NCBI RefSeq assembly: GCF_037042905.1
Contig: NC_087251.1
Coordinates: 31,188,001-31,252,000, forward strand
Direction of reading: 5' to 3'
Origin: Lytechinus pictus
Taxonomy: Eukaryota
DNA: 64,000 bases
Made by a program: the position numbers and the translations under genes. Under the pieces are notes generated by a model. It did not search any database. It was not told the origin of the DNA and saw nothing but the letters and a program-made list of their open reading frames with translations. Below, in pieces: positions 10,985 to 38,200 of the stretch; positions within the stretch are counted from its first letter, which is position 1, and every line of letters starts with the position of its first letter.

Positions 10985-11180
10985 TATCATCATCATCAAC
11001 AACTATCAACTATCACCATCATCATAAACATAATTATCATCACCACCACCATCATCATCATCATCATCATCATGATTGTCAGTGTCAACATCATATTCAA
11101 CATTGCCATCATCATCATTACCAATATATTCTTTATCACCATAATCACCATCAATATCATCATCATCATAATCACCACAA
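10985..11180. repeat. Imperfect (CAT/CAC)n trinucleotide repeat
   Basis: Directly visible. Confidence 0.9.
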
Positions 11181-11790: not shown

Positions 11791-14027
11791 AAAACTTGTT
11801 TATTTCTCGAAAGTTGAGCCAGCAAAATTCTTTGTCGCAGGCAAATGGGTTTCACGCAAGAACCTAGAGAGACTAATGGAAACCTGTGAAACACCGAATA
11901 GTGTTGTAGTGAGCCCCCATCCCTACAAGACACCCTGGGATCCACCAGGTTTAGGATGGAGCTGGGTGGAGAATAATATACAAAAGCATGTGACAGGCAT
12001 CCAGCTATATTACAAGGAAGATATATGTAAGGAGTGACGAGGTTTCAGTCTGAGAAGTCATAGTAGTAATAGAAAATAGTGGTATTGATTCTGGAATGGC
12101 AGCAACACAACAAGAGCGGTATCCAGGCGCAGTAGGAAGAGAAAATAGAAAAGAATCTTATTCTGCAACATTAATTAATTTTATTTACCAAAAATTGGTT
12201 GACGCAAATTACTTCAGGATGTTAACTGATAAAGGGGTTGGTATCACACAAAAACATACAATCCTCAATACTGAAGTCAGGTAGCTTCATAATAGGGCAG
12301 TTTAAAAAATCAGTGAGTAATACCCACAAATGTTAACTTTCCAGTTAATAATAAAGAGCAGGAACAACTAGAATTCTTGAATTTTATTATCCAGATTTTA
12401 GAAAGGAAGAAATTCCAAATCAAATATTATATTATAGGTCAGGTCTCTCCAATACTGTCAGGGATATATATCCAGCAATCCCAATAGACATATGGCATTT
12501 CAAAAAATGTTTCAAAGAAACAATTTACATATCTGTACCACTTCTCTTTTTCAAGAACTAGCTATGTACAGACCAGATAGCAGCATTAACTTTGTTGTAC
12601 AGACACTGAAGCAGATCAAGGATACAGATCTATGAGGATATCGCATGTCATACATTAAATGGGGTGAACTGCACCTTGATGTACAATGTATTTACAAGTG
12701 CAAAACAGCAAGACATTGTCACTGTTGACACAGATAAGAAATCAGTTGTAATTGGGAATTAACTATGTTTTCAACCTAACATTTAACATTGAAAGTGTTA
12801 TACACGAGAAATACATGAGAAATTTTTAAACTATAATATAATACAAATAAGTTGTGCCTTGTGTTCATTCGGCTTAAAAAGCCAACAGCAGTTGGTGAAA
12901 CCTCGTGACCACAGAGAATGGAAAGTTTCTATTTTATAATTTTCACCATTTCCAGAATAATGATTCACAAAGTTCTGACTAATACTTGAAGATAACTTGA
13001 TGAATCATAATATTCATGGATGTAGTAATACCTTCATTATCAGATGATAACTAAGAATTGCTAATAGAATTGAATGTCAAACTAATACTACATTCCATCA
13101 CACCTAAAATGAAGACAGATTACTGGAAGAGTTTAGGTAAAGATAAAGAGACTATAAGCGAGGACTTGGGGAGGTAGGTGAAAAGAGCGGTTCTAGGACA
13201 ATTACCTCCCGGACAACTACCCCCTGAGGACAACTACCCCCGAGGACAACTACCCCCGAGGACAATTACCTCCGAGGACAATTACCCCCCGGACAATTAC
13301 CCCCCCAAGGATAATTATTATATTCTCGAGTATCTTAGAATCAAACGATCACCGCTGTAAGAAGCCGTAAAAAGTCAGCTTCATCTGCAAATCTTTACGA
13401 AACCCAGAACTCGTACAAACGCATCGCTCGTACGATCATAATTGTTATGTCACCGTAGCATAAGATCATTCATTTTGGCAATCTTCGTATGACCAGCACA
13501 ATTTTTTTCTTGGCTCGCCATGTAGGCCGCCAAAAGATGTGATTGAAGCTTTTACATTCCAATGTAAATGTCGCGCAGCTGAATAACCGCTACTTCCCGT
13601 GCGTTCAGGCGTGCTAAAATAGAGGGGGAAAGAACAAGAGATTTGAATGAAAATGTAAAACTATATTAAGAAGGTATAAAGTGATACAATGGATTTGTTG
13701 TTGTTGTTTTTTAAATGCTGAATAAAGAATATTCCAGCTTATAACATCCTACTGGGGTTTGAACTTCGTTTGTAACAATAATCGACACGGCGCAAATCCT
13801 ACATAACAGTTTGCCTTATTATTAGGTTTTGGTATAACTGTTTTGTGTTTGAACAGAGGTATTATCATAATTATCTGGCGCGCGCGAAATATCTGTAGTG
13901 TTGATTTCTTTTATGAGAATGCTCTACTTAATCAATGGCAAAATTAAAAGGGAATTGGGAGACTTTTCTATGCAAACCATATGACCCGCCATTGATTTGG
14001 TACATGAGTCCGTCACTATTTGCAAGG

Positions 14028-15059: not shown

Positions 15060-15380
15060 TTTTCTACATTTATGTGGAACATGCACCAGGCAACTCAAGA
15101 TGGAAATTTAAGGACAAACAACCATGTCGAGGGTTGGCACTGACGTTTCCAGATGGGTGTCGGTGCCCACCACCCTTCATTTTGGAGGTTTCTGACCGCG
15201 TGGAAACAAGAACAGGCAGTCAACGAAGTCCAGATCGGCCAAATACAGGCGGGGATGCCACCACCACCACGTAGGAGGGTCTATCAAGATGTTACCAGGA
15301 GACTCGTCAGGCTGGTGACAAACTATGACCAAAGAGAAATTTTAGATTTCTTAAGGGGCGTGGCCCATAACCTCAATTGA
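15060..15380 (+). pseudogene. MULE transposase C-terminal fragment with in-frame stop; central catalytic region missing
   Basis: Frame reads FSTFMWNMHQATQDGNLRTNNHVEGWH*RFQMGVGAHHPSFWRFLTAWKQEQ...DFLRGVAHNLN*. WN..RTNN..EGWH..HP..W.F is the typical MULE motif. TGA at 15141-15143. Confidence 0.85.
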
Positions 15381-16376
15381 TTTACATATTGATCATGTTT
15401 ATGTTGCCTTAGGATTGGTATATCATTCATATCATAATGTCATTAAGCACAACTATTTCTTGCACGGCTTTCTTTTAACTATATATGCGGGAAACTTATC
15501 TATCTCTAATTACATTTTTCTGTAACGATCAAAATAATTTATAACTTTCTGAATAGTGATACTCAACTTGTCCTTCACTAAATCAATTCGATGTAGTGTC
15601 AAAGTAGTTTCTATTCACAATGTTGTAGGCCTAATGTATATGGTTGGCAGGGAATTTGTCATGTCTGCTGTTCTTCCTTGTTATTATTCTTGTAACCTAC
15701 GCTCCTGCTGTACAGTGCGTATCAAAAATAGGTAACAAATTTTAATGTCTTCTATTTTCGCGATGTATCGTGTAGAAAAATAAATACGAACCCATTACTT
15801 TTCTGGGATCAGGGATATAGCAACCGAGTAACTTGAAAATGAAGGTGACAGATACAAAACTCCATTTTATGGCAGTTTTGAAAGATAAACAAGACTTCTG
15901 AATATTGGGTACATAAGGATTCAAACAGCCTGTTCATGCTGTTACAGGCTGATCTACAGTATTTGGAATCCAGTTTGCATGCATTAGTTGTTATCTCGGA
16001 CAATATGTTTGTGCGACTCATCAACAACTATGATCTATGGAAACTGGATTAGAAAATTGTGGTTCATTATTCAATAACAGGTTGTTTAAAAACATTGTTA
16101 TCCTTAAGTTATAATAACTTAGATTACCCGCTTATTATGAAAATACTTACGATGATTTTCTTATTTACGAGATAACTGGATATACTCATTTGATTTGCTA
16201 GTTCATTACGATTAACTTGCACGCCGAATAAAAGTACACAATTTTTCCTGCGCGCGCGCAGCATCTCCCTACGCACGCACTATCCCAAGATCATCACGCA
16301 AAAAGGCGTCCATTTCCTCTCATGAGCCTGAACGCAAGACATGTTGCCACGTAAGGCGAGGGGTCGGTGGGAGGGT

Positions 16377-16475
16377 TCAAATGAGTATATCCAGTTATCT
16401 CGTAAATAAGAAAATCATCGTAAGTATTTTCATAATTTACATCAATAACTGGGATATACTCATTTGATTTGCTAG
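16377..16475. repeat. DIRS internal complementary region (ICR)
   Basis: 16377-16436 is the exact reverse complement of 16134-16193 and 16435-16475 is the exact reverse complement of 22816-22856, so it spells the end-to-end circle junction ...gtattttcataATttacatc... Confidence 0.92.
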
Positions 16476-16599
16476 ACCAACACGGATTCAACGTGAAGGG
16501 AGGCATGTCTAGACTAAGAAAGTGCGTACAAAAATAGGGAGATGAAGACACGAAAGGCCGCTGCCTTAAGGACAGAGGAGGAAAATAAGGCCTCATGTG

Positions 16600-17090
16600 A
16601 AGAAAGGTCCTTAAGGACAAGGAATTAGAAGAGTGCCAAAAAGGCGGTCCTCAAGATGTCGTATACGACGATTCCATAAAAAGAGCCCAAGAAGAATGAT
16701 ACTATAATATCATGGGCCCTCGGCCTAGTGTCAGAAGGAGAACATCATCACCAACTGACTTGATCGTTTCAACAATCCAGCGTGAGAAGATGTCTCGAGA
16801 AGCTGCCGCAAACGGCTCGCGCGACAAAACAACCAACTGCACAGAGTTGGGAATTGTCTGAAGAATGGCAAACAAAGACGAGGGTTAGAAGTAACACCTA
16901 ATCTAAGCCTATCCCGGCAACGGTCCGGGAGCAATGCATAAGTATGCAAAGCTTTGTACTGTAAATGGTTATATATAAACAGATACAGGAGGGATCTCGA
17001 CTGATAGACAGACAAAAGATACCCTGAAAACCGACCCAAGAGGGAGTTAGTCAAGCGTCAAGAACGACCGACAGGTGCCATGACGGACTA
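16600..17090 (-). pseudogene. DIRS tyrosine recombinase remnant (frameshifted)
   Basis: Peptides across shifted frames: PSWHLSVVLDA ... PFAAASRDIFSRWIVETIK ... RPRAHDI ... SSWALF ... DILRTAF/WHSSNS, matching DIRS YR motifs PSWDL..VL, SRW, AH..R, W.S...F. Confidence 0.8.
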
Positions 17091-17574
17091 AGCCATACAA
17101 GCTCAACGTTTGAGAAAAACTTAAGAGGTTGTAAGATTCGGATTGAAGGTATTAATCATCCGTAACCGGAGGGATGATAATTGCCGATGATCAAAAAACG
17201 ATCCGATTTTGTTGAAAATTTCGACAAGAATCGTGATCGGAAGACTGAAACTTGTACGGTTCAGTAAGTGATCCATCAATCAATCTGAGAAGGCGACAGC
17301 GGGGCTAATAAAAGCCACGGTCAAGTCACCGGCTTAATAATTTAAGCCAAGCCGCAACCATGCAAACGTAAGGAATGCGAGATAACTCAGAAGCCCCCGC
17401 GTGGGAGAAGGCGCCCAGAATTCGATATCTGTCTCAAATGCGTGAGGGCAGAACATCTGCAGAATTCTGATAGAGAGCTGTGGCAGGACGTTTCCAGCGG
17501 TCCGAAAAGGACATGGAACGACAGAGAGTAAGGTTGAAGTAAACCACTCGTAAGGCAGTCAATGTGTCGAGAAA

Positions 17575-17815
17575 GGCGACTGAGTGCCATTCTGTTAACA
17601 GAAAATGCCACGGACCTGCTGTCTATGTAGAATAGAACAGTCTGGTCAAAGCAGCTCAAACGGGCGTGTCGGAGAAAAACGCGGCACGCATCACGACATA
17701 ATAAGTGTGATAGACAGCGGATCCCTTTTGTCCCGTACTAAATAAAACACCCGCCCGAGGGTGCAGTGCCCGCGGCGGGAGAGGTGGGCGGTGGTTTGGC
17801 TGAAGCCACCATCGC
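17575..17815 (-). pseudogene. DIRS RNase H remnant
   Basis: RWWLQP ... HTYYVVMRAAFF ... QTVLFYIDSRSVAFSVNRM resemble degenerate DIRS RH motifs (WW, HIN.LE..A, VL...DN..V..YIN); position upstream of YR fits the DIRS domain order. Confidence 0.55.
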
Positions 17816-19629
17816 CGAGAGGGTCCGTAAGACTAGGCTACGATGGATGTCCGCTGAGCGGAGTAATCCCTAGTCGCAGCAAGCGTACGCCAGAGATGAG
17901 CTGGCGAACAATGTCTCTGTCATGATCTTACGTGTAAACGATGATCAAGAGATGTCGGTCAAGATGTTCTGAACCAACAGACAACGCCAGACATGATACC
18001 TCAACAGTTACGTTCCCGACGGAATCGAGTGAGGTAACAACGGCCCTGTCCTATCAAGGTTAGGGACGGAAACTGGCTAGGAGTGTCTAAGTCCTCGCTT
18101 GACGAAACAAGCGGAGGAGAAAGGCGACTTGAGGAAAATAATCACCAATATTTCCCTCGTCTGCGATGAGAACCAGTTGTTTACGAAAACAGCCACAAGG
18201 CCTGGTTTCTCTGGTGATCGCAAGGGCAAGCACCGCCGGCGCCGGTTGCAACAGCATGGAACAGTCCGATATCGGTAAGATAAGGAGTTCCGAGAAACTG
18301 CGGGGGGCGGCGAAAATGACGCCCTAAGCAGCGGGGGATGAGAATCTATGCTTCTAAAAAGAAGAACTCCAGTGAAGTAAATCACTTTCATGGAGAGACT
18401 CATCCACAGTCGGCCCGAGAGAAAGCGGGTCGTGGTGATCGTGGTTAGACAGGCATAAGTATGCATACACACAGTATACATTTTATACATAAATGTATAT
18501 CCACCACGATTACATCATCCTCGGTCACATACATAGCATGGAAGGAGGATGAAAGCAGCCTGCGAGGCATCTCAAGTGTGCCGATTGAAAAAGCTTCTAA
18601 AAAGAAGACAACTCGACACACGGGCACGGTAAATGCATCGACCGTAGCCCACTCCACACGAGGAAGCGGCGGAGACGCCCGCAAGCTTGACCCACATAGA
18701 GGGCAGTCTATCGGATAGACTGTTCGAGCTCGACCGATGGCCTGGTGGCGGACAGTTTGGTGTGAACTCGCCGACCCGGCACGGTGGGTGCGTCCAGGAA
18801 GTAGGCATAGAAATGCCGACAGAAAAAACCTGGGGCTTGAAACAAGCCTGAACGCACGCACACAGCCGACAATCTAAAGAGATATATGGCTGTTTCTTTC
18901 CACCGAGATGATGCTTACCCGACCGGGAAAGACTCGGGGAACAAGTTGTGAATGTCAACAGGAGGGGTATCTGGCGTATAAATAGCCGATTCCCTCCGGG
19001 CGTTCGGTGCGGGTGCTGCCGGCGGGGTCCGGGGGGACGACCGATGATGGCAGCTCGGGCAGGGCTCGCACGAGTCGCCCGAATACGAGACAAATAGGTT
19101 ACAAAATAACCATAATGCACCGGGTGGTGAAGGCATAGCGATTATTAAGTATAGGAGAACTATTAATCGCCGTGACATTCAGATCCGATATTTATGCTCA
19201 TAAGCTCGGCAGAGCTACGAGATAGTGAGACATACCGCTGAGCGGTGATGGTGCTAATATCGGAGTCGCCCTCACTACAGCGGCGATCGCTGGAGGACGG
19301 GTGTCTGTACTAGCCCTGACTCTAACCTTGCAAGGAAGAGAAGGAGTTAAAAGTAAAGACAGGGCACCCTTACTTTCGTATAGAAAGTGAGGTTCAGGCC
19401 AAAAGCTGACGGTCCCGTCGCCTGGGCGGACGGTCCGCGGGCGTGATAGGTTGCCCTCTCAAAAACAGCCAAACATTCTCATGAGAGAAGGAAGGCATGC
19501 GGTATGTTAGAAAATCTTACCTCCAATCTACAGGCCCGCCTAGGGGGTAGAATGGAGAGAGTTACCGCTGAAAGAGCCGTTGCCGAAAGCGATGCCCGGT
19601 CAAAACTGTGAGGCTTGACGTAGAGGGCG

Positions 19630-20740
19630 AATTCGGGAGTACCTGCATATTAATGGGGGATACCCATGCAGGTGAACTCGCCGACGGCTCCCCGGAGTGC
19701 GGGCTGGCGGGAGGAACTCAATCCGCTCAATGCCCGTCACCGGCAGTAAGACCGACAGAAAACAGTCAAGCGGCTGCAGCGACCAACCAGCGACATACGG
19801 GGGCTTGCCGACTTGCTGGGTGAGACCCATACGTCAGCAGCACCTGTGCATATCATGAAAACACCCGTGCGGGTGAAAAGGGGCCGGCAATTTCAAAGAA
19901 AAGGGCCGGTGGCTGGTGCGAGGCTGTTGATAAGCCCAGCCGTCGCGTAGCGGCGGTCTGTAATGACGGAGAACACGAGGGTAAGAACCCGTAATGCTCG
20001 GGACGTGTTGATGCAACCTGTAAGGATGCAACGTCCAGCCGTCGGTCATCGAGAGCTTGCCGACATGTTGGCTTGAAACCCGTATGTTGGAAGCACCTGC
20101 ATGGAACGGGGTCACCGTGTAGGTGAACAGCGTTTCAATAAAAGCCCGGCGTGAGAGGGCAGGTGACTGCTTGAACCGCACGGTGCTTAGCACGGCGGCT
20201 AAAGCTGACATGAAGCGGGAGTCTGGTGACATAATGGGGACGATGCCCGTATGTCGATAACACCTGTGTATTAGCGGGAATTTCCCTTGCAGGTGCGTGA
20301 GCCGGCGAATCATGAAATTGCCGGTGACTCTCCGAGGTATGAGATGGCGAATGTCTGCTTGGCCTGCCCGGTGCTTGACACGGCGGCTGAAGCTGACATG
20401 AAGCGTGGGGGAATTTACCCGCACTGCTCGTGGGCGTGTGAAGCAACATGAGAGTTGCGACGCGTGACCAACAATTATCGGGAGTCTGGTGACATAATGG
20501 GGGGCGATGCCCGTATGTCGATAACACCTGTGTATTAGCGGGAATTTCCCTTGCAGGTGCGTGCGCCGGCGAATCATGAAATTGCCGGTGACTCTCCGAG
20601 GTGTGAGATGGCGAATGTCTGCTTGACCTGCCTGGTGTTTGACACGGCGGTTTTAGCTGACAGAGAGCATGAGGATAAAAATCCGTGATGCTCGAGGGCG
20701 TTCTGTTGTAACATGAAGTTACGACGCCTGACCATCGGCA
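19630..20740. repeat. GC-rich tandem array inside the DIRS element
   Basis: Near-identical ~185-bp direct repeat at 20216-20404 and 20479-20662, with more diverged related units back to ~19630. Confidence 0.75.
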
Positions 20741-20909
20741 CAAGAATTAGAAAGAAAGGGTCTGCCCGCGAAGCGGGGTTAGCAACCTAGAATTTCTTCT
20801 TCTTCCTCTTCTATGCGGCCCCCGCTGGGGGGCAGAATAGGGCACAAGAGACAGGGGGGACGTGATATCTCGCATGAGAAAAATCACCCAAATCTGATCA
20901 AGCCGTTTA

Positions 20910-21403
20910 GGCACATGAACGCTAATTCCACGGTTCCACCTTTAAGGGCACGTGGACGCGATTCCACAGTTCCACCCTGATCAGATAATCGTGAGAATGA
21001 CGGAGTCGAGCTCACGTGTCTCTAGCGACTAGGGGCTGGTAGCCCTTTGCTAATGCTCCCTGAAGGAGACTGACAAAGCATCGAGCCTAGTCTGTGCCGG
21101 GAAAAGAGTCCCATGCTCTTAACCCGGACTTGATGGACCCGATAGCCGGTGGGTAAAGCAGCCCTGGAGGAGTGAAGTTTTCTATACTAGTACCACACTC
21201 CCCAAAATAGGTTCAGGTCCCGTCGAGGGAGCCTTGGCTATCACCTTTCAGGCACGTGGCCGCTGCGCCACGGTTCCACCCTAAAACGCTCGGGTACGTG
21301 GGCGCGGTTCCACGGTTCCACCCTCTTGGGCACGTGGACGCAACTCCACGGTTCCACCCTCCTTTTTCCAAGGCACGTGGACGTAACTCCACGGTTCCAC
21401 CCT
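20910..21403. repeat. Six copies of 32-bp unit GGCACGTGG-N8-CCACGGTTCCACCCT in two clusters
   Basis: Two copies at 20910-20978 (first one degenerate) and four at 21251-21403, separated by short variable linkers. Confidence 0.85.
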
Positions 21404-21745
21404 TTATAGAGCCCATCGCAAAGGGTCTCACTCTCTTGCCCTCATACTCACCGCCGCTGATCACGGGAACAATAATACCATGTCTGGTTCTCTCACAGCG
21501 GCAGGTTTGGAGTCATCAGGAGATGAGTCAAAAGAGCTCATCTACCTGGTAAGTTCTTAGCTGAAAGAACAAAAGGAGGGTCGAAAACAGAGAGGGGGCG
21601 GAGGGGTGGGTGGACAAGAAAGGTGACAAGCAAGATCCTTATCAGAAATATTAATAATAAAATTAATAACTTCGGAAGAACAGGATCGACTTCTTAAACA
21701 TGAGATCAAACAAAGTTAAGAAGCTGAAGTGAGAAAAAAAAACTA

Positions 21746-21780
<35 letters not shown>

Positions 21781-24700
21781 CAATTACACGTAAACATGAC
21801 GTTAATTAATTAAAAACAGAAACGTCTAAGTCCAAGGACGAAGAGCAGGATCAGCTAAGAAAAAAAAACACATGTTTTTTTTTTTTTTTTTTTTTTTTTT
21901 GACAAGGGTCAAAAGAAAAAGTAAAGGAGCTGATCTGAAAGGAAGAAGTAAAAACTTACTTCCCTTAAACTGGAAAGCCGAAAACTCATTAGCGAAAACT
22001 TTTTTAAAGGACGCTAATAGAAAACAGGGGGGCTTCCCAAAAAATTTTAAGAGAAAAAATTTTTTAAGACAATAAGTCTAAAAGAAAAAATTTCAATACA
22101 AAAATAATTATTAAAATTAATTAATAATTAAACAATTAACCAATTGGTTAATTAACAATTAATTAATTCATTAATTAATCAATCAATCAATTAATCAAAC
22201 AAAAACAAAAGATTGATTGAGACAATCAACCAACTCACAAAGGAACAAGTTGAAAACAAGTTTGAGAACAAACAAGGGCGACGCTCCTATCTGTCCCATA
22301 GCCTAAGCTGTGGGGAGGAAATAAAATCAATTCAATTCAAGACGAGGCAAAGGTGCAAGTCAAGAATAATAAAGAATTAAAACGATTTGGCGTCGTATCA
22401 ATGCCTGCGGCACGCAGGAATAGTGCGCGGAGCTACGGGTAAGGGAAGCGGAAGCAACCCGTCTGTGAGAAAACGAAACTGACGTTCGGAACTCACAAGT
22501 TTATTTAAAGAAAAACGTGAATAATAACACGAATGCTCCATGCACTATGATATAAATGACATCAATCTATAGCCGAAAGGCAAGGATTGAAATAGGCTGT
22601 AAATACATAGATAAATATGTAAACAACGGACACTTTTTATAGAAAAGTGGGAGTGTACTTAGCTAACGTCTGCTCACGGCGGCAGGCGAAAGTAAAAGAG
22701 GAAATGGACGCCTTTTTGCGTGATGATCTTGGGATAGTGCGTGCGTAGGGAGATGCTGCGCGCGCGCAGGAAAAATTGTGTACTTTTATTCGGCGTGCAA
22801 GTTAATCGTAATGAACTAGCAAATCAAATGAGTATATCCCAGTTATTGATGTAAATCATTCATGTACCTCATACATGTACATGTACGCATGTCTGCACTG
22901 TAAACACCGTTTTAGTATCCATGGTTCAACAGATGTAAATTCATGGGTTTATAATTCTTATTATTTACGCTTCCTTGTAGTAATTCGATTTTGTTTGGTC
23001 AGGTTACATGATTATGAAGAGACCACCGATAAAGGATCCATATTGTACAAGCCATATTTATTTTCAGTTGATGCCTCCATTTCTGTTACTGCAAATGATT
23101 ATGATTGACAACATTTTGTGATAATCCAACTGTTTCCATTATGTTCATAAACATATCTTTCATAAATCATGTTTTTCCTGTCTGTTCAGTTTGCTCGTTA
23201 TCGCTATTTCTTCAGAACCAGTGGATACATAAACTTCAAACTTTAGGAAAGATTGTATCACCATAGAAAGACAAGCTGATGAAATATATAGAGTACATGG
23301 TCAGACTTCAGGGACGCAGTGTCCGTTTGTGAAATTCCTTGTATTATGCTTATTTGTTATTATATCAAGTTTTAGAAAAAAATGTTTAAGTGATATTTTG
23401 TGAAATTATATATTCGCAACAAGAAGAATATCTGAATGTATTTTAAGTACACAGGTCTAACGTCAAGATGCCCAGGTCAGCTAATGTAGCCTATACATGT
23501 AATTTGAGATTCTGATTTCGTTATCATATTTCTTGAACTTCGTGACAATCGCCATTGGAAGATTAGAACTCGAACTACTCTTATGTAGGGTAAATTTCAA
23601 GCGTCAAGAATAACTTGTAACGTAAACTTAAATGGTTAAGATGGTATGCATCACCTAAATGTCCTGATAAGAGATCGGAGTACATTAGTTCAAAGATCAA
23701 TAATCACAGATATCAACTTATGAAAATCTATATGTTGACCTCGTATCATATTATATTACCTATTATATGCATTGAACCATTGTATATACAATTCAAAATC
23801 AGGACAATGTTGGTCAAACGTCACAGATGCAGAGGACACAGTTGAATCTGTCTAGCTTGTTGTTGTATGTTTGGGGTTTGTATATTTTTTTTAATAATAT
23901 AGTTTCTTTGTTTACCCATTCATGACAGTAGTTGTTCAGGGAAATTAAGATAAACCTTTCATCTTCAAATTGACAAGACCTGTATTTTTTTTAAATAAGT
24001 GTTCCATACTATAAACAAATTGTATATGCTTAACACTATCATGATTGTCAATTTGTATGTAAAACACTGTATTTGATTATGTCATATCGTTTACAATTTA
24101 GTACTTAATTTCCTTCTTTAACGTTTAATTACTTTCACCCTTAATGGTAAAATTTCATGGTGTTCTTGTGTGTATTATCTTTGCTTTAAAGTTATTAAAC
24201 TTACTGTAATACGTTATAAAATCACGCTTTTATCTGGAATGTGCACCAATTGTTTCATTATTCTTAGCTTCTTGTTTGTTGAATTGTTTTAAATTGCAGT
24301 TTTATACTTGTCAGTGTTAGTGTTGATGGTTGCGTTATCGACTTTCATTATTTCTACCTATGAATGTGTCTTTTGAACGTTTTATCTATTTTCCTGATTT
24401 TTTTTCTTGAAATTTATCCCAAACTCAATTAAAAAAAAATCAGATCAGTTTGAATCAGAGATATTCAGCATTTGTGATTATTATGTGTAATTGTGTCCTT
24501 TCATGAATGTTCAATTGTTCTATAAAAACTTGAAAATAAAAGGTAGTATGAGGGACACTTTACATATTATCTGATGCATATGTGTAACCAAACGGGAGGT
24601 TTGGGGCGCAAGCCCTGAAGTAAAAAAAAAAGGAGAAAAAAATGAGAGAGAAAGAGAGAGAGAGAAAAGGAGAAAGAGCAATATAAAAGAGAAAAGGAAA

Positions 24701-25052
24701 GAGAAAGTTATTAAGATAAGATGAAGTAGAAAATATTTCGAAAACCTGTGCCACCGGCCAAGACTTACAATGGGTCCCGCTTGATTCTAACATTGATGCC
24801 GGAGAGGAGGGGGGGGGGGGTTATTTCTGAGGGTAAATGTCCTGGGGTATATGTCCTCAGACGTAATTGTTCGGGGGGGAAATTGTCCTCAGGGGTAGTT
24901 GTCCTCAGGGGGTAATTGTCCTTGGGGGGGGGGGGGGGTAATTGTCCGGGGGGTGATTGTCCAGGGGGTAGTTGTCCTGATACGGAAAAGAGCATCTTAT
25001 AAATTGTTGTTTATTCTGTAAGGTTTAGACCATGTATTTACTTATCATCTTA

Positions 25053-25350
25053 ATCACCACCACCACCACCACCACCACCACCATCAACACCAACATGACC
25101 AACACGACCATCATCATCATCACCACCACCATCATCATCATCATCACCATCACTATCACCATCACCATCACCATCATCATCATCATCATCATCATCATCG
25201 TCGTCGTCGTCGTCGTCGTCGTCACCACCACCACCAACATCATCACCATCAATATCATCATCATCTTCATGACCATAACCACCAATATCGTCATCATCAT
25301 CATCACCATGGTAATCATCATCATACATCATCATCAGCAATATCCTCATC
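25053..25350. repeat. Compound (CAC)n/(CAT)n/(CGT)n trinucleotide repeat
   Basis: Directly visible. Confidence 0.9.
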
Positions 25351-26072
25351 CTCATAAAATCACAAACATGACCGTACTGTTATCATCACAAAAATCTCAG
25401 TCATCATCCATCACTGGACTTAATTTATTTCTACTACTCACTAATGATTCCTTTAACTGAACTGAGGAAATTCATCAGAGCACCATACATCTCCAGTCAA
25501 GCCTTGTCCCTTGAGATACCCTAATCAGTGATGGTCAAGAGTACTGTAGTGCTTTGAGCATCATGAAGCAGAGTAGATAGTCAAGCCCAGTCAGTCTACA
25601 GGTACCGATACTTTGCTGTGAAGAAAGCGATAAAAATTCATTCATTCATTTGGTTTCAGTTCAACAAAAGAAAAATTATGAATAAAAATATGCACTTTCT
25701 AATAATAAGTGGAATGCCTCTAGAAGTCTCGCTTGTATTATGCAATTAAATATGCACAGGAGTATGACACTCAAGTATCAATATCATATCCTTTCCATTT
25801 ATTATTTTAATATACAATGTTATATACAAGGTAATAAAGGGGCAATGATGAGGATATCCAGTTCGCTTGCCTCAAGGTCTGTCTTATTATCGTTCAAAAC
25901 TTTTGGCACCCTTTTTAATTTCCACAATTTATGCTACAGTTCAAAAGGCTGGAGTTTGACATCATTTCTGCTTTTATTTATTTTCACTATTACCTTATTA
26001 AAGACAAAATGGGTTTAATATGAGATTTAAGAGTCTGCCAAGTGTTTTTCTCATGCAAATAGGGTGAGTAGC

Positions 26073-28338: not shown

Positions 28339-30673
28339 TTAATGTTATGTTCAATGATAACATGTATATATCCATCAGTCTCATAATATTTTATCGCTTA
28401 TTTAACCATAATAGCAAGAATGCTTCTTAGAAATGGGTCTTGGGCCACAGAGGTTAGATTGGTCATATACTTGATTTAAATGCTTGCTTGCACAAACTGA
28501 TCAATGTAACAATATGTTGCCAGGGATAGAATTCTTACTTTTGTCAGAAATGCAACATACCCACATGAGAGTAATGTATACATGTGCCATCAATTTGTAT
28601 AAAGCTGGCAAATTATATAACGGTATACATTTGTCAGTGCTCATTCATAGAAAATGCAGGCAGGCTATTGACTGTATTTCAACTACAGTGAGCGGAGAAA
28701 AGTGATTGTTTACCATATCACAAAAAGTTATTAACAAAAGTTGACATTTACATTCACTAATTCTCTGTCTGTGACGGATAAAATTATAAAAAAAGGACCT
28801 GAATTATCATAGTGCAACTGTAAGTAATTTTTTCAAAAATTCAATATTCCCTACTTTCTTGACTCTGAAAATATAATTTTCCAGAAAATTTCAATTAAAG
28901 ACGAACATCATGTACATGTGGGGAAATCTTGCAACACCTCCATAAGACATTTTCGTAAGAATATATATAATATGCATTGTATGCCAACCTGTGGTATGAA
29001 CACAGCGAGTTTAATTATTTTCATCAGCAGAATTACTCGCTGTCATGGACCGTGAAATCGATAGGCACGTTGAAATATGGCACACGGAAGTGATAGGATA
29101 GCTTCCGAGAAAATAAGAGAGGAGGTTTTGAGTTTTTTTCTTGGTTATATCACTCAAATCATGATACATGAGTACAATTGTAATGTTAGATCTGAATAGC
29201 ATCCTCATTCCTAATGACTTTGATTTTCTACTGGTAATTTCATTGTCACGGCACAACCAAAATGCAATCTTTATTCATTTTTTCTCTTGTATCATAAGTA
29301 ACTTGCTTGTAATGAAAAAATAAGAACAAAAATGAAAAAGCAAACAATAAAGAAATTCCCTCACTTTGTTGACATTGAGAAAGTAAGCAATAAGACAGAA
29401 ATGTTTGTCTTTCATTGGTTATCTATTGGTTTCAGAAATGAAACACCCACCTTCAGAAAGAAGAGGCCTGCAATGATCTGGAAATAACAGGATCAGATCT
29501 CCTCATGTCCTGAGATGGAAAATTAAAAGTGAAACCATGAATTCAAGGCTGGTGCCAAAAATTTGTGATTACTTGTGCAATATAATAAAGCAAAAATAGC
29601 ATCATAATGACATTCTCACAATTTTTTAGTTTTAAAATCAAAGTTAAATAAAAAATTGAACAAATAAATTGAATTTTACAATATAATTAGATAAAATTTT
29701 TATAATTGTTATAGTTCCCCCGGGGCTTGAACTCCTGACTTCCCAGTTGTGAGATGGATGTTCTACCTACTGAGACAAAACACCAGTACAAGGGATAGAG
29801 CAAAGTCGATTTGGCACTGCACAGTGTCTGCCGGGCCCACGATCAATTAGGCAAAATTAATTTTCGGAGTATTTATATTTCAGATTCTATTACGAACAAT
29901 AAAATATGGATTTTCATTTAATTTCTATTTTTATTTCTACATGTAGAATAAAATCTAAATTAAAAAAAAAAAAAATTCATGTGCATATACACTGTATGGA
30001 GATCATATTGACCTGTCTCGAGATAGGAAGGACAGGTAAGGGGATATTGATATAATATTATATGACCAGGATGTGCTTTTCTGCAGGTATGGAGCACCAA
30101 GGACAATTACAATTTGATGAAATGACACATTAACTGAACTTGACATTATTCATACATAAATAAAAAGTTTAAGAGTTAAGGCTGGCATACAGTGGTGCAG
30201 TGAGATTTTTGTAAATGTGTCATCTTTGATCCTTTTTTTTCCTTCAAAAAAGGTTGGAGAGATAAAAAATATTTCTTGTTGTTGTTGTAGTCTTCAACTG
30301 ATGTGAACATAGGATATCCACAGGAAATACAACAAAGATTCCAGTAAGGCAAGTTGAGCAATTTCCTCTTGACTATTAAATGCAATGATGAAAAGTATAA
30401 AAATTCTGCAGAGTAGACACAAGGTAATTTAATCCTTTGACGACATATGGTGATTAAACATTAGACACTATCACACTTGAACTACACGGGAAATTTGTTT
30501 CTAACTGGAAAACTGTTGCATAAATTGGTAAGGTAGATAATATTCATAATTATTTATGTCCAAATATAAAACTTTATAGGCCTAAACCTATATTCTTAAT
30601 CTCTAGAATCTTAACAAATACTGCTTTATTTCTTCATTTCTCTTTAGGAGTTTTGCCTGCTGTGTGTTTAATC

Positions 30674-31765
30674 ATGGATGACTTGTACACAGTCCAAATG
30701 GATAGCACTTTGAATGTTACTACAACTTTTCAACCAACTATACCCTTGATCTACACCAGCCAAACTCATGTTGAAGTCATTGCTTCCCTGACCATTACCA
30801 TCGGAATACTGGGCATTGTTGGAAACTTAATGGTGTTCCTGGCTGTTGCCCTCTCAAAGGGTCTCCAGAACTCCACCAATGTCTTTGTGGTGAGTCTATC
30901 AATATCTGACTTCATTTCCGCCATTACTCTGCCATTTCAAGGTGCTTCAGTGCTCTCTGAGTCTGGCTGGCCTTTCAGGAAAGGACTGTGTGACCTCCTG
31001 GGAGCCTTATTCATCTGGACAAACTCAACCAGCATCCTGACTATAACAGCCATTGCAGTCAATCGTTATATCATTATCACTAAGACTATAAGAGTTCAGC
31101 AGAGGATCTATACACACTGTGGAAACACCTTGATGGTAGCACTGCTATGGACGTTTCCATTCCTGGTTTTGGTGACTCCTCAGCTCATTCCTGCAACAGG
31201 TGATATAGTGTATAATCCTGTCTACAGGTTGTGTATCTGGGATTTGGAACATCCTTCAGCCATTGTGTTTCAAAGCATAGGCTCGGTTATCTTCATCAGT
31301 TGCTCCGTCATCATAGCCTACTGCTATGCAGCAATCTATCGCTTTGTCCGAAGACATGTCAAGAAGACAGAAAACACCCTCAGAGAATCAAGTGAAAACT
31401 TAGAAATGACAGATCAAACCAACAGAAAGAAGCCACCGAAAGGCCCAAGCATCAAGCAAATCAATATCACCAAGAACTTGGCTGTGGTTGTGGTGGTATT
31501 CTCCATCTGTGTTCTGCCATACACCCTAAACCTGTATGTACCATTGTATAGCTTATACACAGCCTACCTAGCTGTTCTTGTGGTTCTTCCCAATTGTTTG
31601 AACCCTATGATCTATGCAGCACGGCACCCTCTATTCAAGGTAGTCTTTAAATGCATGTTAACCTGCAGGTTCCGGGATATCCCTCATCCTTCTGAATGGC
31701 TCAAAGCTCTTCTTCATAATACAGGTTCTGCCAACAGAACCTCACAGTCCAGCTCTACAGTTTGA
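30674..31765 (+). CDS. Rhodopsin-class (class A) orphan GPCR, intronless CDS, 363 aa; melatonin-receptor/moody/Tre1-like NRY motif
   Basis: Seven hydrophobic segments with GN (TM1), LSISD (TM2), AVNRY (TM3), W (TM4), FSICVLPY (TM6), NPMIY (TM7); Cys at start of TM3 and in ECL2; N-terminal NVT sequon. First in-frame ATG at 30674 follows a pyrimidine-rich acceptor (tttctctttag ending 30647), implying upstream non-coding exon(s). Confidence 0.93.
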   Translation: MDDLYTVQMDSTLNVTTTFQPTIPLIYTSQTHVEVIASLTITIGILGIVGNLMVFLAVALSKGLQNSTNVFVVSLSISDFISAITLPFQGASVLSESGWPFRKGLCDLLGALFIWTNSTSILTITAIAVNRYIIITKTIRVQQRIYTHCGNTLMVALLWTFPFLVLVTPQLIPATGDIVYNPVYRLCIWDLEHPSAIVFQSIGSVIFISCSVIIAYCYAAIYRFVRRHVKKTENTLRESSENLEMTDQTNRKKPPKGPSIKQINITKNLAVVVVVFSICVLPYTLNLYVPLYSLYTAYLAVLVVLPNCLNPMIYAARHPLFKVVFKCMLTCRFRDIPHPSEWLKALLHNTGSANRTSQSSSTV

Positions 31766-34049: not shown

Positions 34050-35280
34050 ATTATTCCATGGACCATTTTTTTATTCCTCTACAATTTCAAAATACTTTTC
34101 TATGTAGTGCTGCAAAGTATGATGAATATGACCTGGAGTTTGAATAAGTGGTAGAGTGGTTCGGAGTTTTTCCTCACATAGATGCAAAGCTTTTGGCGCG
34201 TTTTGGGTGTCTTAAGAAGAACATTTGCTCTAATAAGAGTGCTGATAGTTTGAAAACAAGCACATGAACCCATTTTTTCAATGTTTGCACCTCTTAGGTA
34301 TACCTTCCTCTACAACTTTGCAAAGTTTGGTGAAAATGACATGGATTTTGAATAAAGTGCAGTTCTTTTTCTTCTTAAGTGTGTTATTGAAATTTGAAAT
34401 TTTTGAGGTTGAGTATTTATCTTTCCCGCAATTTCTATGAACTGAGAGTGCTGTTAGACTTAAATGAGCAAACGATTGAAAGCACTATAAATAGATTATC
34501 CATCTTAAGGATACAATTATTAATCATTTTGCAAAATTTGACGAAATTTTCATGGATTTTGACTGAGTAATAGAGCTTTAAACTCATTAATGTGATCTCG
34601 TGAGGTCTAAACATGCCAAATTCTTTTGAATGCGAAATTTTGAAGAACATCCATTTGGGTTAACTTTGAAGCTCTATGGCAAAAAATCAAGCACATGGGC
34701 CCATGTTAATTTTTGCATATTTGGAATATTCAGGTGCTAAAGTATCTATGTGCAGAGAATGATGAAAATGACATGGATTTTCAATGTTTGGGAGCCAGAC
34801 TACGGAACCATTCGCATTTTAGATGGTATTAACAGACTTTTGCTTGTTTTCGGCGTATTTTGGGCTGTTTCAAGCCAACTCGCAATACTTTGGACACTGA
34901 TAATTTGAAAACGAGCACATGGACCCCATAGTTTAAATGTCTTAACTTCCTTAAAATATATTCCTCTACAAATCTGGAGATCATGATGAAAATCACATGG
35001 ATTTTGAATGTTTGGGAGCAGGACTATGGAACCATTCACATTTAAGACATTTTGGACGGTAATAGACTTTTGCTTGTTTTCGGCGCATTTTAGGCGATTT
35101 TCAAGCCAACTTGCAACCGTTTAGACTCTGATAGTTTAAAAACGTGCACATGGACCCCATGCTTTTAACATTTTAACGTCTTCAAAATAAATTCCTCTAC
35201 AACTCTAGAGGGTAGGATGAAAATGACATGGATTTTGAATGTTTGGGAGCAGAACTAAGGAACCATTCATATTTTGGACA
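34050..35280. repeat. Diverged tandem array, period about 225-230 bp
   Basis: gatgaaaatgacatggattttgaatgtttgggagc recurs at ~34761, ~34986 and ~35217, with more diverged copies near 34330 and 34120. Confidence 0.7.
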
Positions 35281-38200
35281 TTTTTTTTTCTTCATACGTT
35301 GACTATGACCTGTAATTTTCGATTATATAATTATCAAAATGCGTTTTTGAAACTACAACTTATTTATTTACCAATCACTAAATTGTATATAATTTTTATC
35401 TATTATGATGTTTATTCTGCTTTGTATACTATATGTGTATATGTTTGTTGCTATGTTTATTATCTGAAAATGAAAACAAAATGGAAAAAAAAGGGTCATC
35501 AGTCGTGCGTAAAGTCATGCATATCAGGTAGGTTTTTACCTACAGTAATAGAAGGAAAGTGTTTACATGTATAGATTTCTAAAGAGAGGAATGGGGTAGG
35601 GAAATAACAGCAACAAAGAGATCGTAACCAACCTGCAGATGCCTCTTTTACAGCGTCGTCTCACTGCTTCCGAAGATTCTCCATGATACATCTCTGCATA
35701 ATAACCATGAGCTCGACCTAACATCAATAATGGTGGGAGGAGGAGGGCTGGGTAGCTGGAGAAATAAACAAAGCTACCTAGGTTAAAATTTGGTCAACAA
35801 TAATAAGAGTTAGTAAGGAGACGACATATGACAGTGAAACTGACTCCTCCAGATTTTATGGATATTTTGTGGAAGAATCAGAGTTGAGCTGTATACAAGA
35901 ATGTGACCTGTATCAGCGGATATGGAAGCGACAAAAATGAAACTTCATTGTTAAAAAAAAAATTATGGCCACTTTGAGTTGAAATACATCAAACTTGGGC
36001 TCTGATAGAATATCAGGTAGAAAAGAATATTTTATGGTATCATTAAGTTGTTTTTAATAAATCAACACTATTTTACAAGGAATGGTTCCATAGTGGAATA
36101 ATCTACTAGGAAGACATTTGAATATTGATGGAGGTTTTACAAATTTATCAGAAACATCATCTTTGTTGAAATTTAATATTTTATTATTGATAAAGACAAG
36201 CTGTACCTAAAATTTGGTTTTCAAAATCATTGACTATAAAGACCACCAAAAGTCTGCCGAGCTGAATATACCCAAATTAAAAATTGGTACTTCAGTAAAA
36301 TGCTTAATTCAAGAAACATTAAGATACTTTTACAAATATGTTGTACATCACACAGGGCATTCAAAATACTGTTTAATGAAAAGTGAAAAGAATCTTATAA
36401 TGGAGGAAAATACCGGTACTTGTCATGGAGAAGAGAAGAAGACAAAATACATGTTTTGATCACATGTAAAGTGAATCAAAGCTTTTGGACATACTTTTGT
36501 TTATTAAAAAAGTCTTTCAAACACATGTTCATGTTATTATCGATGTCGATCTTTTGATAAAGAGGACACCTGTAAATTGTAATGAGCACAAAGATAATAT
36601 CATTCATATAGCTTTTTGTTTGGACTTTGTATAATTTTCTATAAATCAATTTTGTTACATAATTACAAGGAAGAAGACAATAACCCATTTTGATTTGCAT
36701 TTGAATTGCATAAGAGACTTGAAATTAACAAAAACTGTACCTGTGAGGTAAATAAACCTTTTAATCGTCCATATGTATTTGATTACAGTATGTTTGATGT
36801 TTTTTATGTAAATGTGTAATGAAGATACAGACAAAGTGATTACATATAAATACTAATGAAACAAAAATAAATATAAGTGCCCAAACATATGCAGTGCCCT
36901 TGTCTGTGCAAATGCCTATTTGCACAATATTTATTACGTTTATTACACGACATGCACCTACATGTAACACAAGAAAAACTGGTGAAAAACATTTGATTTT
37001 TTTTACACAAGGTTCAAATTGCAATGTTCCTAAATCTAACCGAGTGTGTACAAATTAAAATGAATGTCTACACTGATATTCATCTCAAAATGGCATGGCC
37101 ATGGTTTCTTCACATTTTTTTATATTGGTCTGCATAATACAGTACTGGACTACTGGTTCTTATTTTTATTTATTTTTTCATATTGGTACCAACTTTTGTA
37201 GGATTAAAAAATCCAAAATGCAGTGTGTATACTGAGAAAGTTAAATAAATGTGTGTTTTTCGAAAGGGTGATATATGTACAAGCTGAATTACTGTAGCAC
37301 ACTTATGCATGAAATCTGCCTTATCCATGGCGATGTAGTTTCCCGTGTAGTTTAAACCTGTTTTGTGAATACTGCACAGACATAGGATTCTGTATAGCTC
37401 TGTACTGTATAAGATTACAGAATATTCCTTCAAATAGAGATTAGCTATAAATGGGTGATAATTCAAAACTAAGTTTTACAATCTCACTGAAGTAGAATGT
37501 TGTCCTGAAAACTTCTGATTGATATGATACAATTTTGAAGAAAATCAGGCAAAGAATGGAACAATAAGGACCAAAAGCTCATTTTAGGGGCATGGCCTAA
37601 AAATGCTGAGCCATAGTCTGCTGGAAATGTGAAAAGCCCTCATTTTCTAATTAGAATATAATTGAGCAGATCAGTGTGATTTAAAAAAATATATATATAT
37701 AGTAAATATATAGCATGAAAACTAAATTGGCATTGTAAAAAAGTTTTACAAATATTTTTAAAGTATTGAAGCAATCAAGCAAGGTCATTTTGGTTTGGAC
37801 CCTCAATGGTGAAAATATTCAAACTGACTGGTTGCCAAATAATAAGAAGAACACCCCCCCCTCAATATATCTAAGAGCTGATTTCCCCCCAGTCATATTG
37901 TACATACATGTAATACAGTGATGGCAGCCATTTTACTGTAAAAATACAGCACATGTAAAATTTAATATTTTTTTTAAGAAGACAAAAAATATCTGATAAT
38001 ATAATCCCAAGTTTAATGGCCCAAGAAATATTACAAGTTCCATTTATTATGATAAAATATTTTTTTAAGTAATGAACAAAATGTTAATTCTAATCCAGTT
38101 TTATTGATCTGAAATGACCTTTGACCTTGACCAGTAACCTGAACTGTCTTGAAACTACCCTATGTCTAAGTACTGTAACATAACATAATCATACCAAGTC

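Follow-up and report, generated by a model that had tools for sequence, protein, structure and literature searches.

We analysed a 64-kb window of the Lytechinus pictus genome (contig NC_087251.1, positions 31,188,001 to 31,252,000 of the forward strand) and found in it a DIRS1-like retroelement with intact ends and a ruined coding core. With a probability of about 85%, we read this element as a young insertion of an old, long-lived non-autonomous family that is mobilised in trans. A preliminary description of the window had proposed a non-autonomous DIRS family of this kind, and the present data support that proposal; the helper and the copying at the RNA level are what we infer from them. 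All coordinates are positions in the 64-kb window (Table 1). The internal complementary region (ICR) lies towards the lower-numbered end, which places the element on the minus strand.

The conserved parts of both inverted terminal repeats (ITRs; 16178-16320 and 22697-22839) are complementary at 143 of 143 positions. Taken over 16172-16320 and 22697-22846, 149 of 150 positions match and the sole difference is one extra G, which confirms the near-identical repeats of about 150 bp noted in the preliminary description. The ICR is exact to both ends, as had also been noted: it is made up of the reverse complements of 16134-16193 (60/60) and 22816-22856 (41/41), overlapping on AT, and it reproduces the GG versus GGG difference between the ends, one on each side. 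The junctions share AT only with the target (ccgctt-AT-cattc), again as first described. Over the ICR region, DNA identity to the intact clade members L001 and L006 is 74-77% with invariant junction letters, and both the ICR and the junction are inherited from the clade.

As in DIRS1-like elements, the ITRs are accompanied by a right extension, and an ICR near the 3′ end is complementary to both termini and carries the circle junction. The proportions agree as well and lie within the ranges published for this group. An ITR of about 150 bp with a short divergent part (15-16 bp here, beside the 143-bp conserved part), a right extension of 29 bp, an ICR split into 41 and 60 bp, a start with ATT, a core of more than 10 nt in all four repeats and the absence of a target duplication are shared with DIRS1-like animal elements (PMC3266345; here and below, papers are cited from excerpts). 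Also in common is the gene order reverse transcriptase (RT)-RNase H-methyltransferase (MT)-tyrosine recombinase (YR)-ICR, with sizes near those in the SkoDIRS and TnDIRS1a rows of the same paper. This type of end structure is confirmed by PMC8969392; PMC12477816 brought nothing specific to the comparison. The present element differs in having no intact open reading frame or catalytic motifs and in matching the target on 2 bases instead of 3. With its 6.7 kb, it also exceeds the DIRS1-like rows compared from Table 3 of PMC3266345 (4.0-6.3 kb).

Table 1. Features of the DIRS1-like element (positions in the 64-kb window).
Feature	Position	Strand	Remarks
Whole element	16134..22856	-	6723 bp; DIRS1-type order: 5′ ITR - interior - pol remnant - YR remnant - ICR - 3′ ITR plus extension
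5′ terminus (left ITR)	22697..22856	-	starts ATT; 22816-22856 pairs with one ICR half
Right ITR	16163..16320	-	conserved part 16178-16320 (143/143); short divergent part 16163-16177
Right extension (rE)	16134..16162	-	29 bp; complementary to ICR only; G 16151 pairs with C 16419 (this copy)
Internal complementary region (ICR)	16377..16475	-	99 bp; circle junction at 16435-16436
YR C-terminal remnant	16556..16857	-	best-kept coding piece; 71/97 identical to P0053, 6 frameshifts; profile E 3e-15
YR N-terminal and middle remnant	16924..17520	-	weak, shortened; position inferred from collinearity
Probable MT-region remnant	17395..17560	-	weak; end of lenient pol alignment
Tether and RNase H remnant	17570..17857	-	34/95 identical to P0053
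RT remnant	18159..18724	-	catalytic motif site eroded at 18187-18173
Possible end of gag	18730..19020	-	not established; one short patch in lenient alignment; score not above shuffles
Internal duplication array	20148..20734	.	period about 264 bp; 87% between two long copies
36-43-bp repeats, two clusters (20903-20978, 21244-21404)	20903..21404	.	contain all 5 CACGTG words of the element
A+T-rich 5′ region	21732..22198	.	T30 (21748-21777), T26 (21875-21900), AATT-type palindromic run (22110-22198)

Public sequencing runs were searched for the stretch. Among the 24 runs listed, from 8 studies, 20 contain part of it and 6 hold at least half of its words. The run search had no holder recorded as RNA, which counts as evidence in neither direction. 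Four runs were compared over 15234-23756 at 85% likeness, with the small-share runs X11-X20 left out. The runs cited below include X1 (organism A, RNA by our guess), X5 (organism B, DNA by our guess) and X10 (organism C, DNA by our guess).

In X10, record 9 joins 15398-16121 to 22855-23229 at 93.6-93.8% identity and a depth of 21.7, with 13 letters between the flanks where 12 are expected, and represents the empty site. There is no target-site duplication. The match to the target is the 2-bp AT at this locus, compared to 3 bp in DIRS1-like elements, and in a second flank found in X1 the match continues to ATT. This second flank comes from a contig that follows the 3′ terminus of the element and then runs into sequence unlike the present locus (loose end at 16438); it is a second insertion. 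The observed/expected ratio of CpG is 1.04 inside the element and 0.40 and 0.49 in its flanks, so that CpG is depleted outside and not inside, which fits a recent arrival. None of the 244 paired end sites carries a mismatch (95% upper bound 1.2%).

A lone DIRS, old and dead, with ends homogenised by local gene conversion, which the preliminary description had named as a possible refutation, might be considered, as the ICR and the 3′ end are about 240 bp apart. Such conversion leaves the empty orthologous site and the second flank unexplained, and the second flank refutes it outright if the contig is confirmed in genomic DNA. Against it stand also the lack of CpG loss, the near-identical ruined core in two other samples and the high-depth relatives described below. 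We therefore regard this explanation as very improbable and retain that of a young insertion of an old family.

The coding core was studied by mapping proteins with frameshift-aware alignment, using strict and lenient gap costs and scoring against shuffled sequence. An HMMER search with 900 read-through codons against 1.84 billion proteins returned 4 matches, which include DIRS proteins of sea urchins that carry RT and recombinase domains. From these matches we reached P0053 (L. variegatus gene model LOC121425366), in which the YLDD and RAHDTR motifs are intact. It takes first place among 110 pol proteins (265, next 203) and among 127 YR proteins (265 versus 185), and maps collinearly over 18724-16556 on the minus strand. 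Together with P0003/P0007 of L. pictus, this Lytechinus DIRS family is the closest intact relative in both pol and YR. The YR C-terminus reached a score of 264 against P0053 (shuffles 38 +/- 4, n=12). For RT, the stretch 18695-18159 is identical at 63 of 172 residues with 5 frameshifts and scored 64 (shuffles 41.0 +/- 3.8, max 53, n=40), and RNase H scored 55 (shuffles 40.3 +/- 4.2, max 49, n=40). The whole of pol, under lenient costs, scored 255.6 compared to 120.6 +/- 13.7 for shuffles (n=20). Less was recovered elsewhere: the YR N-terminal part had a strict score of 45, within the shuffles, and a lenient score of 71.6 (shuffles 54.8 +/- 7.5, max 71, n=20), which is not significant alone, and the MT region alone was not above shuffles (60.6 versus a maximum of 65.8). 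RT, RNase H and the YR C-terminus are therefore above shuffles and collinear in the DIRS1-like domain order, with MT not significant by itself. For gag, a fifth protein query (P0029) scored above shuffles, and was rejected because the positions of its strict alignment and its lenient one did not agree.

No intact frame for gag, pol (with its YL/IDD motif) or YR was found in the element. The minus frames of 16600-19300 contain 23, 30 and 33 stops per about 900 codons each. In pol, 550 codons are squeezed into about 1330 nt and the gene is broken throughout, so it has shrunk by many small deletions; the lenient frameshift counts (20 in pol, 13 in YR) are overestimates. Where the intact relative reads YLDDW, the RT catalytic site (18187-18173) reads FVNNW. 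YR and RNase H had been described as eroded traces, and this holds, with a strong signal for YR and one that is weak and still above shuffles for RNase H. The failure to find an RT motif was also borne out, in that no Y/F-x-D-D/N motif occurs in any minus-strand frame; RT itself is nevertheless not absent, being present as an eroded remnant. In the six read-through frames no Pfam family passes, with one noise match (SH2, E 0.22), and a pol profile built from 40 relatives found nothing in straight frames, so pol was detected by frameshift-aware alignment alone. The element thus carries two clocks: no mismatch among its paired end sites, and an RT and RNase H that retain 63/172 and 34/95 amino-acid identities, with frameshifts, to the closest intact relative. 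The YR tail beside the ICR is far better kept (71/97) than either of these, and a cis signal or a recent exchange with the helper are both possible reasons.

The same lesions were found in other samples. In X1, record 1 matches 16755-17823 (1069 nt) without a gap and with a single mismatch (99.9%), and records 3 and 4 cover 17897-18938 with 2 mismatches and 18 gap letters (99.8%) and 18916-19436 with 2 mismatches (99.6%); relatives at 94.5% and 88.3% are also present in this run. In X5, one contig of 2438 nt (record 15) extends over 16377-18792 at 99.0% with 22 gap letters, and record 16 is at 99.5%. As the contig is distant by this measure, it is not the source of the window. An intact DIRS that looks ruined through assembly or sequencing errors, which might gain some credit from the two long T runs in the 5′ region, does not account for these contigs, which reproduce the core independently, and errors would not bring the amino-acid identity to the intact relative down so far. 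We consider this explanation close to negligible.

Proteins from other loci also carry the decayed sequence. In P0002, an L. pictus helicase gene model, two exon-like pieces come first that are identical at 9 of 10 and 32 of 35 residues to eroded readings of 17813-17758 and 16857-16753, respectively, and the helicase part is without a match in the window. A CAG acceptor-like site precedes the second of these pieces directly in the window; exonisation or an annotation artefact are both possible. P0004, a frame of 95 residues on an ENA contig, is 59-74% identical to off-frame readings of 18470-18184. Its length corresponds to the shortened 287 nt of the window, for which P0053 needs about 112 codons, and therefore a clearly diverged relative already carried these deletions. 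Taken together, the fragments (X1, X5, X10, the second flank, P0002 and P0004) represent several independent insertions with common lesions. Neither a single copy nor private lesions, the remaining refutations named at the outset, describe a family with a second flank in X1 and thousands of relatives at 85-99% in X10.

In X10 we found 5994 records along the element, with 1376 at 99% or more, 2113 at 95-99%, 2041 at 90-95% and 464 under 90%, which puts 5530 of them at 90% or more. The mean depth per contig was 4,100-9,300 at six sites (16419 to 19482), about 100-400 times that of the empty-site contig. Of 66 joints, the 15 shown all come from X10, and internal deletions at depths of 62-581 are among them. 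The depth in X10 indicates only that there are many copies, unevenly kept. No second copy lies within the 64-kb window, and among the run contigs the family was seen as fragments, without a second full-length copy.

Organism C (X10) has the flanks at 94% and element copies that are more diverged than those of X5. In organism B (X5), the element is present at 98.5-99.5% over 16089-22928 without coverage of the flanks, and two sister runs of the sample contain none of the words. The missing flanks were not used as proof, the records being filtered. Low coverage, filtering, a mixed sample or transfer between species are possible sources of this pattern, and recent transfer between species is a speculative origin for the 99% copy that lacks flanks in this sample.

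Next to the perfect ends, single variants bear on how the ends are made. Of 594 variant rows, 40 were shown, and in 11 of these the window stands apart from X1, X5 and X10 alike; these are therefore variants of this copy's own lineage. One of them lies in the ICR, where 16419 is C in the window and G in X1 (93.5/93.5), X5 (11.9/11.9) and X10 (169,869/171,060). Its terminal counterpart, 16151, is G and hence the complementary partner of C 16419. A variant absent from the sampled relatives and present at both paired places points to at least one round of copying after the common lesions arose, and by sequence the mirrored pair is as an ICR-templated model would predict. In X10, a one-base loss occurs at both 16151 and 16418.

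The replication model for DIRS1, in which ends are rebuilt from the ICR and a circle is formed and integrated by the recombinase, has been set out before (PMC5633606, PMC3266345), and is described as not fully proven experimentally (PMC5633606). Applied to the present family, the course of events was probably as follows. The family would descend from the DIRS lineage of P0053/P0003 and would have lost its coding capacity long ago. Numerous small deletions and frameshifts would have eroded it in place since then, with selection maintained on the ITRs, the ICR and the circle junction. The minus strand would be transcribed from the 5′ ITR, as a few reads hint: those of run X23 have mostly the first mate on plus, and in most stranded libraries a first mate on plus means RNA on the minus strand. 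The RNA would presumably be packaged and reverse-transcribed by the gag and RT/RNase H of an intact DIRS, and the missing ends would be rebuilt from the ICR, in keeping with the sequence of this copy. The cDNA would then be closed into a circle, which the tyrosine recombinase of the helper would insert where the target offers a short AT(T) match, leaving no target duplication. For this last step the junction and the empty site were observed, and the mechanism is that of the DIRS literature.

Multiplication without an RNA step, either by DNA-level excision and integration through a recombinase acting on the ends or by segmental duplication, would be compatible with the weak RNA evidence and with the fact that no cDNA circle was seen. 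Segmental duplication is excluded by the exact ends at the AT junction, the empty site and the second flank. The perfect ICR and the mirrored variants between ICR and end are predicted by ICR-templated reverse transcription and have no role in a DNA-only route, which we think improbable.

Several observations weigh against trans-mobilisation of a young, multi-copy family as we propose it. For the relatives, 16151 is not among the variant rows shown (40 of 594), and a single mirrored site such as 16419/16151 could also arise by local conversion. Expression is thin, with 64 reads of 8.7 million in X23, 59% of which run on into unlike sequence, and with X1 being RNA by guess. Among the records listed, no read spans a circle junction of the element family. 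At four further sites the mean depth in X10 fell to 146-940; a copy number does not follow from summed depth, and the per-contig figures are rough. Gag was at or near shuffle level for 4 of 5 protein queries. A helper with the same ends was not seen, and a 21-base ITR motif had 0 matches in metagenome and viral contigs. Finally, the nearest L. pictus relative, P0003/P0007 (LOC129258014), loses the frame shortly ahead of the RAHD motif, and this copy is therefore not a full helper.

Given mobilisation in trans, the P0053/P0003 family is the most likely helper, with odds somewhat better than even. P0003 is 93% identical to P0053 in YR. An intact relative exists, and the comparison with P0053 and P0003 was made at the protein level. 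The YR frame of the near-intact P0003/P0007 is lost within the few codons that also carry one of the breaks of the window copy (16740-16705), which could be one shared event or two. The metagenome loci L001-L007 are distant and none of them has both ends. In X23, five RNA reads run along the ITR as far as 22849 and from there go on into junction-like sequence with a different extension; they show a sister DIRS family expressed in organism A, a candidate helper.

The same non-autonomous family might instead now be mobilised by another DIRS family, the P0053/P0003 lineage being its ancestor and nothing more. Such a switch of helper would agree with the frame loss of P0003/P0007 near the YR catalytic motif, with the expressed sister ITR family in organism A and with an ICR and junction that are 74-77% alike even in distant clade members. 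The 100 codons beside the ICR are however far closer to P0053 than RT is (71/97 versus 63/172), which fits continued exchange with, or constraint by, the P0053 lineage. We hold a switch to be possible and rather doubtful, and keep the P0053/P0003 family as the favoured helper.

The element does not represent a new class, as non-autonomous DIRS-order elements are known; it is DIRS1-like by structure and ancestry and fails autonomy. One of the known elements, TOC1, has split direct repeats rather than ITRs and an ICR and measures about 5.7 kb. In repeat libraries the suffix -N denotes a non-autonomous family. TOC1 of Chlamydomonas reinhardtii likewise is a mobile non-autonomous element of DIRS order that comes from an autonomous partner, TOC3, and differs in its green alga host (PMC9940879, PMC5613634). 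SIRE of Trypanosoma cruzi is likewise a non-autonomous derivative of a tyrosine-recombinase retroelement (VIPER), but it is an internal deletion derivative of about 430 bp with split direct repeats, for which the authors left mobility in trans open (PMC6681497). A zebrafish DIRS repeat is named DIRS-N1 (PMC5400779) and was compared by name. Many DIRS consensus families of Xenopus are degenerate too (PMC9210276).

The large retrotransposon derivatives (LARDs) of plant long terminal repeat (LTR) retrotransposons are likewise large, non-coding and assumed to be complemented in trans (PMC7215508). They differ in relying on LTRs and integrase and in a non-coding core with conserved RNA structure, whereas a recognisable pol-YR fossil is present here (PMC7215508). 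Long terminal direct repeats and integrase-type insertion were not found in our element, which ends in inverted repeats and has an ICR; in its mode of action it resembles a LARD without being one. The view that large non-autonomous DIRS derivatives are little documented has to be narrowed. Non-autonomous DIRS-order elements are in print (TOC1, SIRE) and one is named in the zebrafish set; for a large animal family of the ITR/ICR type with an eroded pol-YR core the literature search, which covered main texts rather than supplements and repeat libraries and does not show absence from print, gave no example.

To our knowledge, the packaging and priming signals of DIRS1-type elements are poorly mapped. 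Where many copies have escaped coding constraint, the family reveals the sequence required in cis, and each copy whose ICR variants recur at its ends is a test of the templating step, so that this element, with its unusually traceable ancestry, holds a built-in test of the ICR model. Surveys based on domains that skip degenerate elements can miss abundant and recently mobile DIRS families, since Pfam and the pol profile of 40 relatives saw nothing here; the screen by Piednoel et al. (2011) excluded degenerate elements by design (PMC3266345). A further and tentative idea is that we are dealing with a LARD-like DIRS1-type parasite lineage that has outlived coding decay of tens of percent, persists in three organisms as labelled, one of which has hundreds more copies of it than of its helper, and has kept the last 300 nt of YR as an undescribed packaging or priming signal in cis. 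If this were true, nature would have supplied a deletion scan in these copies, from which the sequences that DIRS replication requires in cis could be mapped.

The interior contains fewer repeats than first described: 'much of the interior' was an overstatement, as arrays make up 1138 of 6221 interior bases (18%). The 36-43-bp repeats hold 5 copies of CACGTG, which we take to be an E-box, compared to 1 in the remaining 57 kb of the window, and a promoter or enhancer array is possible. An open frame of 272 aa (19834-20652) was taken as spurious, as it lies inside the duplication array and has no Atlas match (recognition 912). An Rfam scan of the element gave 4 matches, all far under gathering scores.

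Outside the element, a stop-free frame of 413 codons at 30524-31765 (plus strand) resembles by eye a single-exon seven-transmembrane receptor. Two arrays with the same 15-16-bp unit in opposite orientation are located at 13195-13304 and 24831-24979, each with an ATC/CAT microsatellite further out (10986-11174 and 25053-25356), and are probably copies of another dispersed repeat. At 34754-35284, a 231-bp unit is repeated 2.3 times at 82%.

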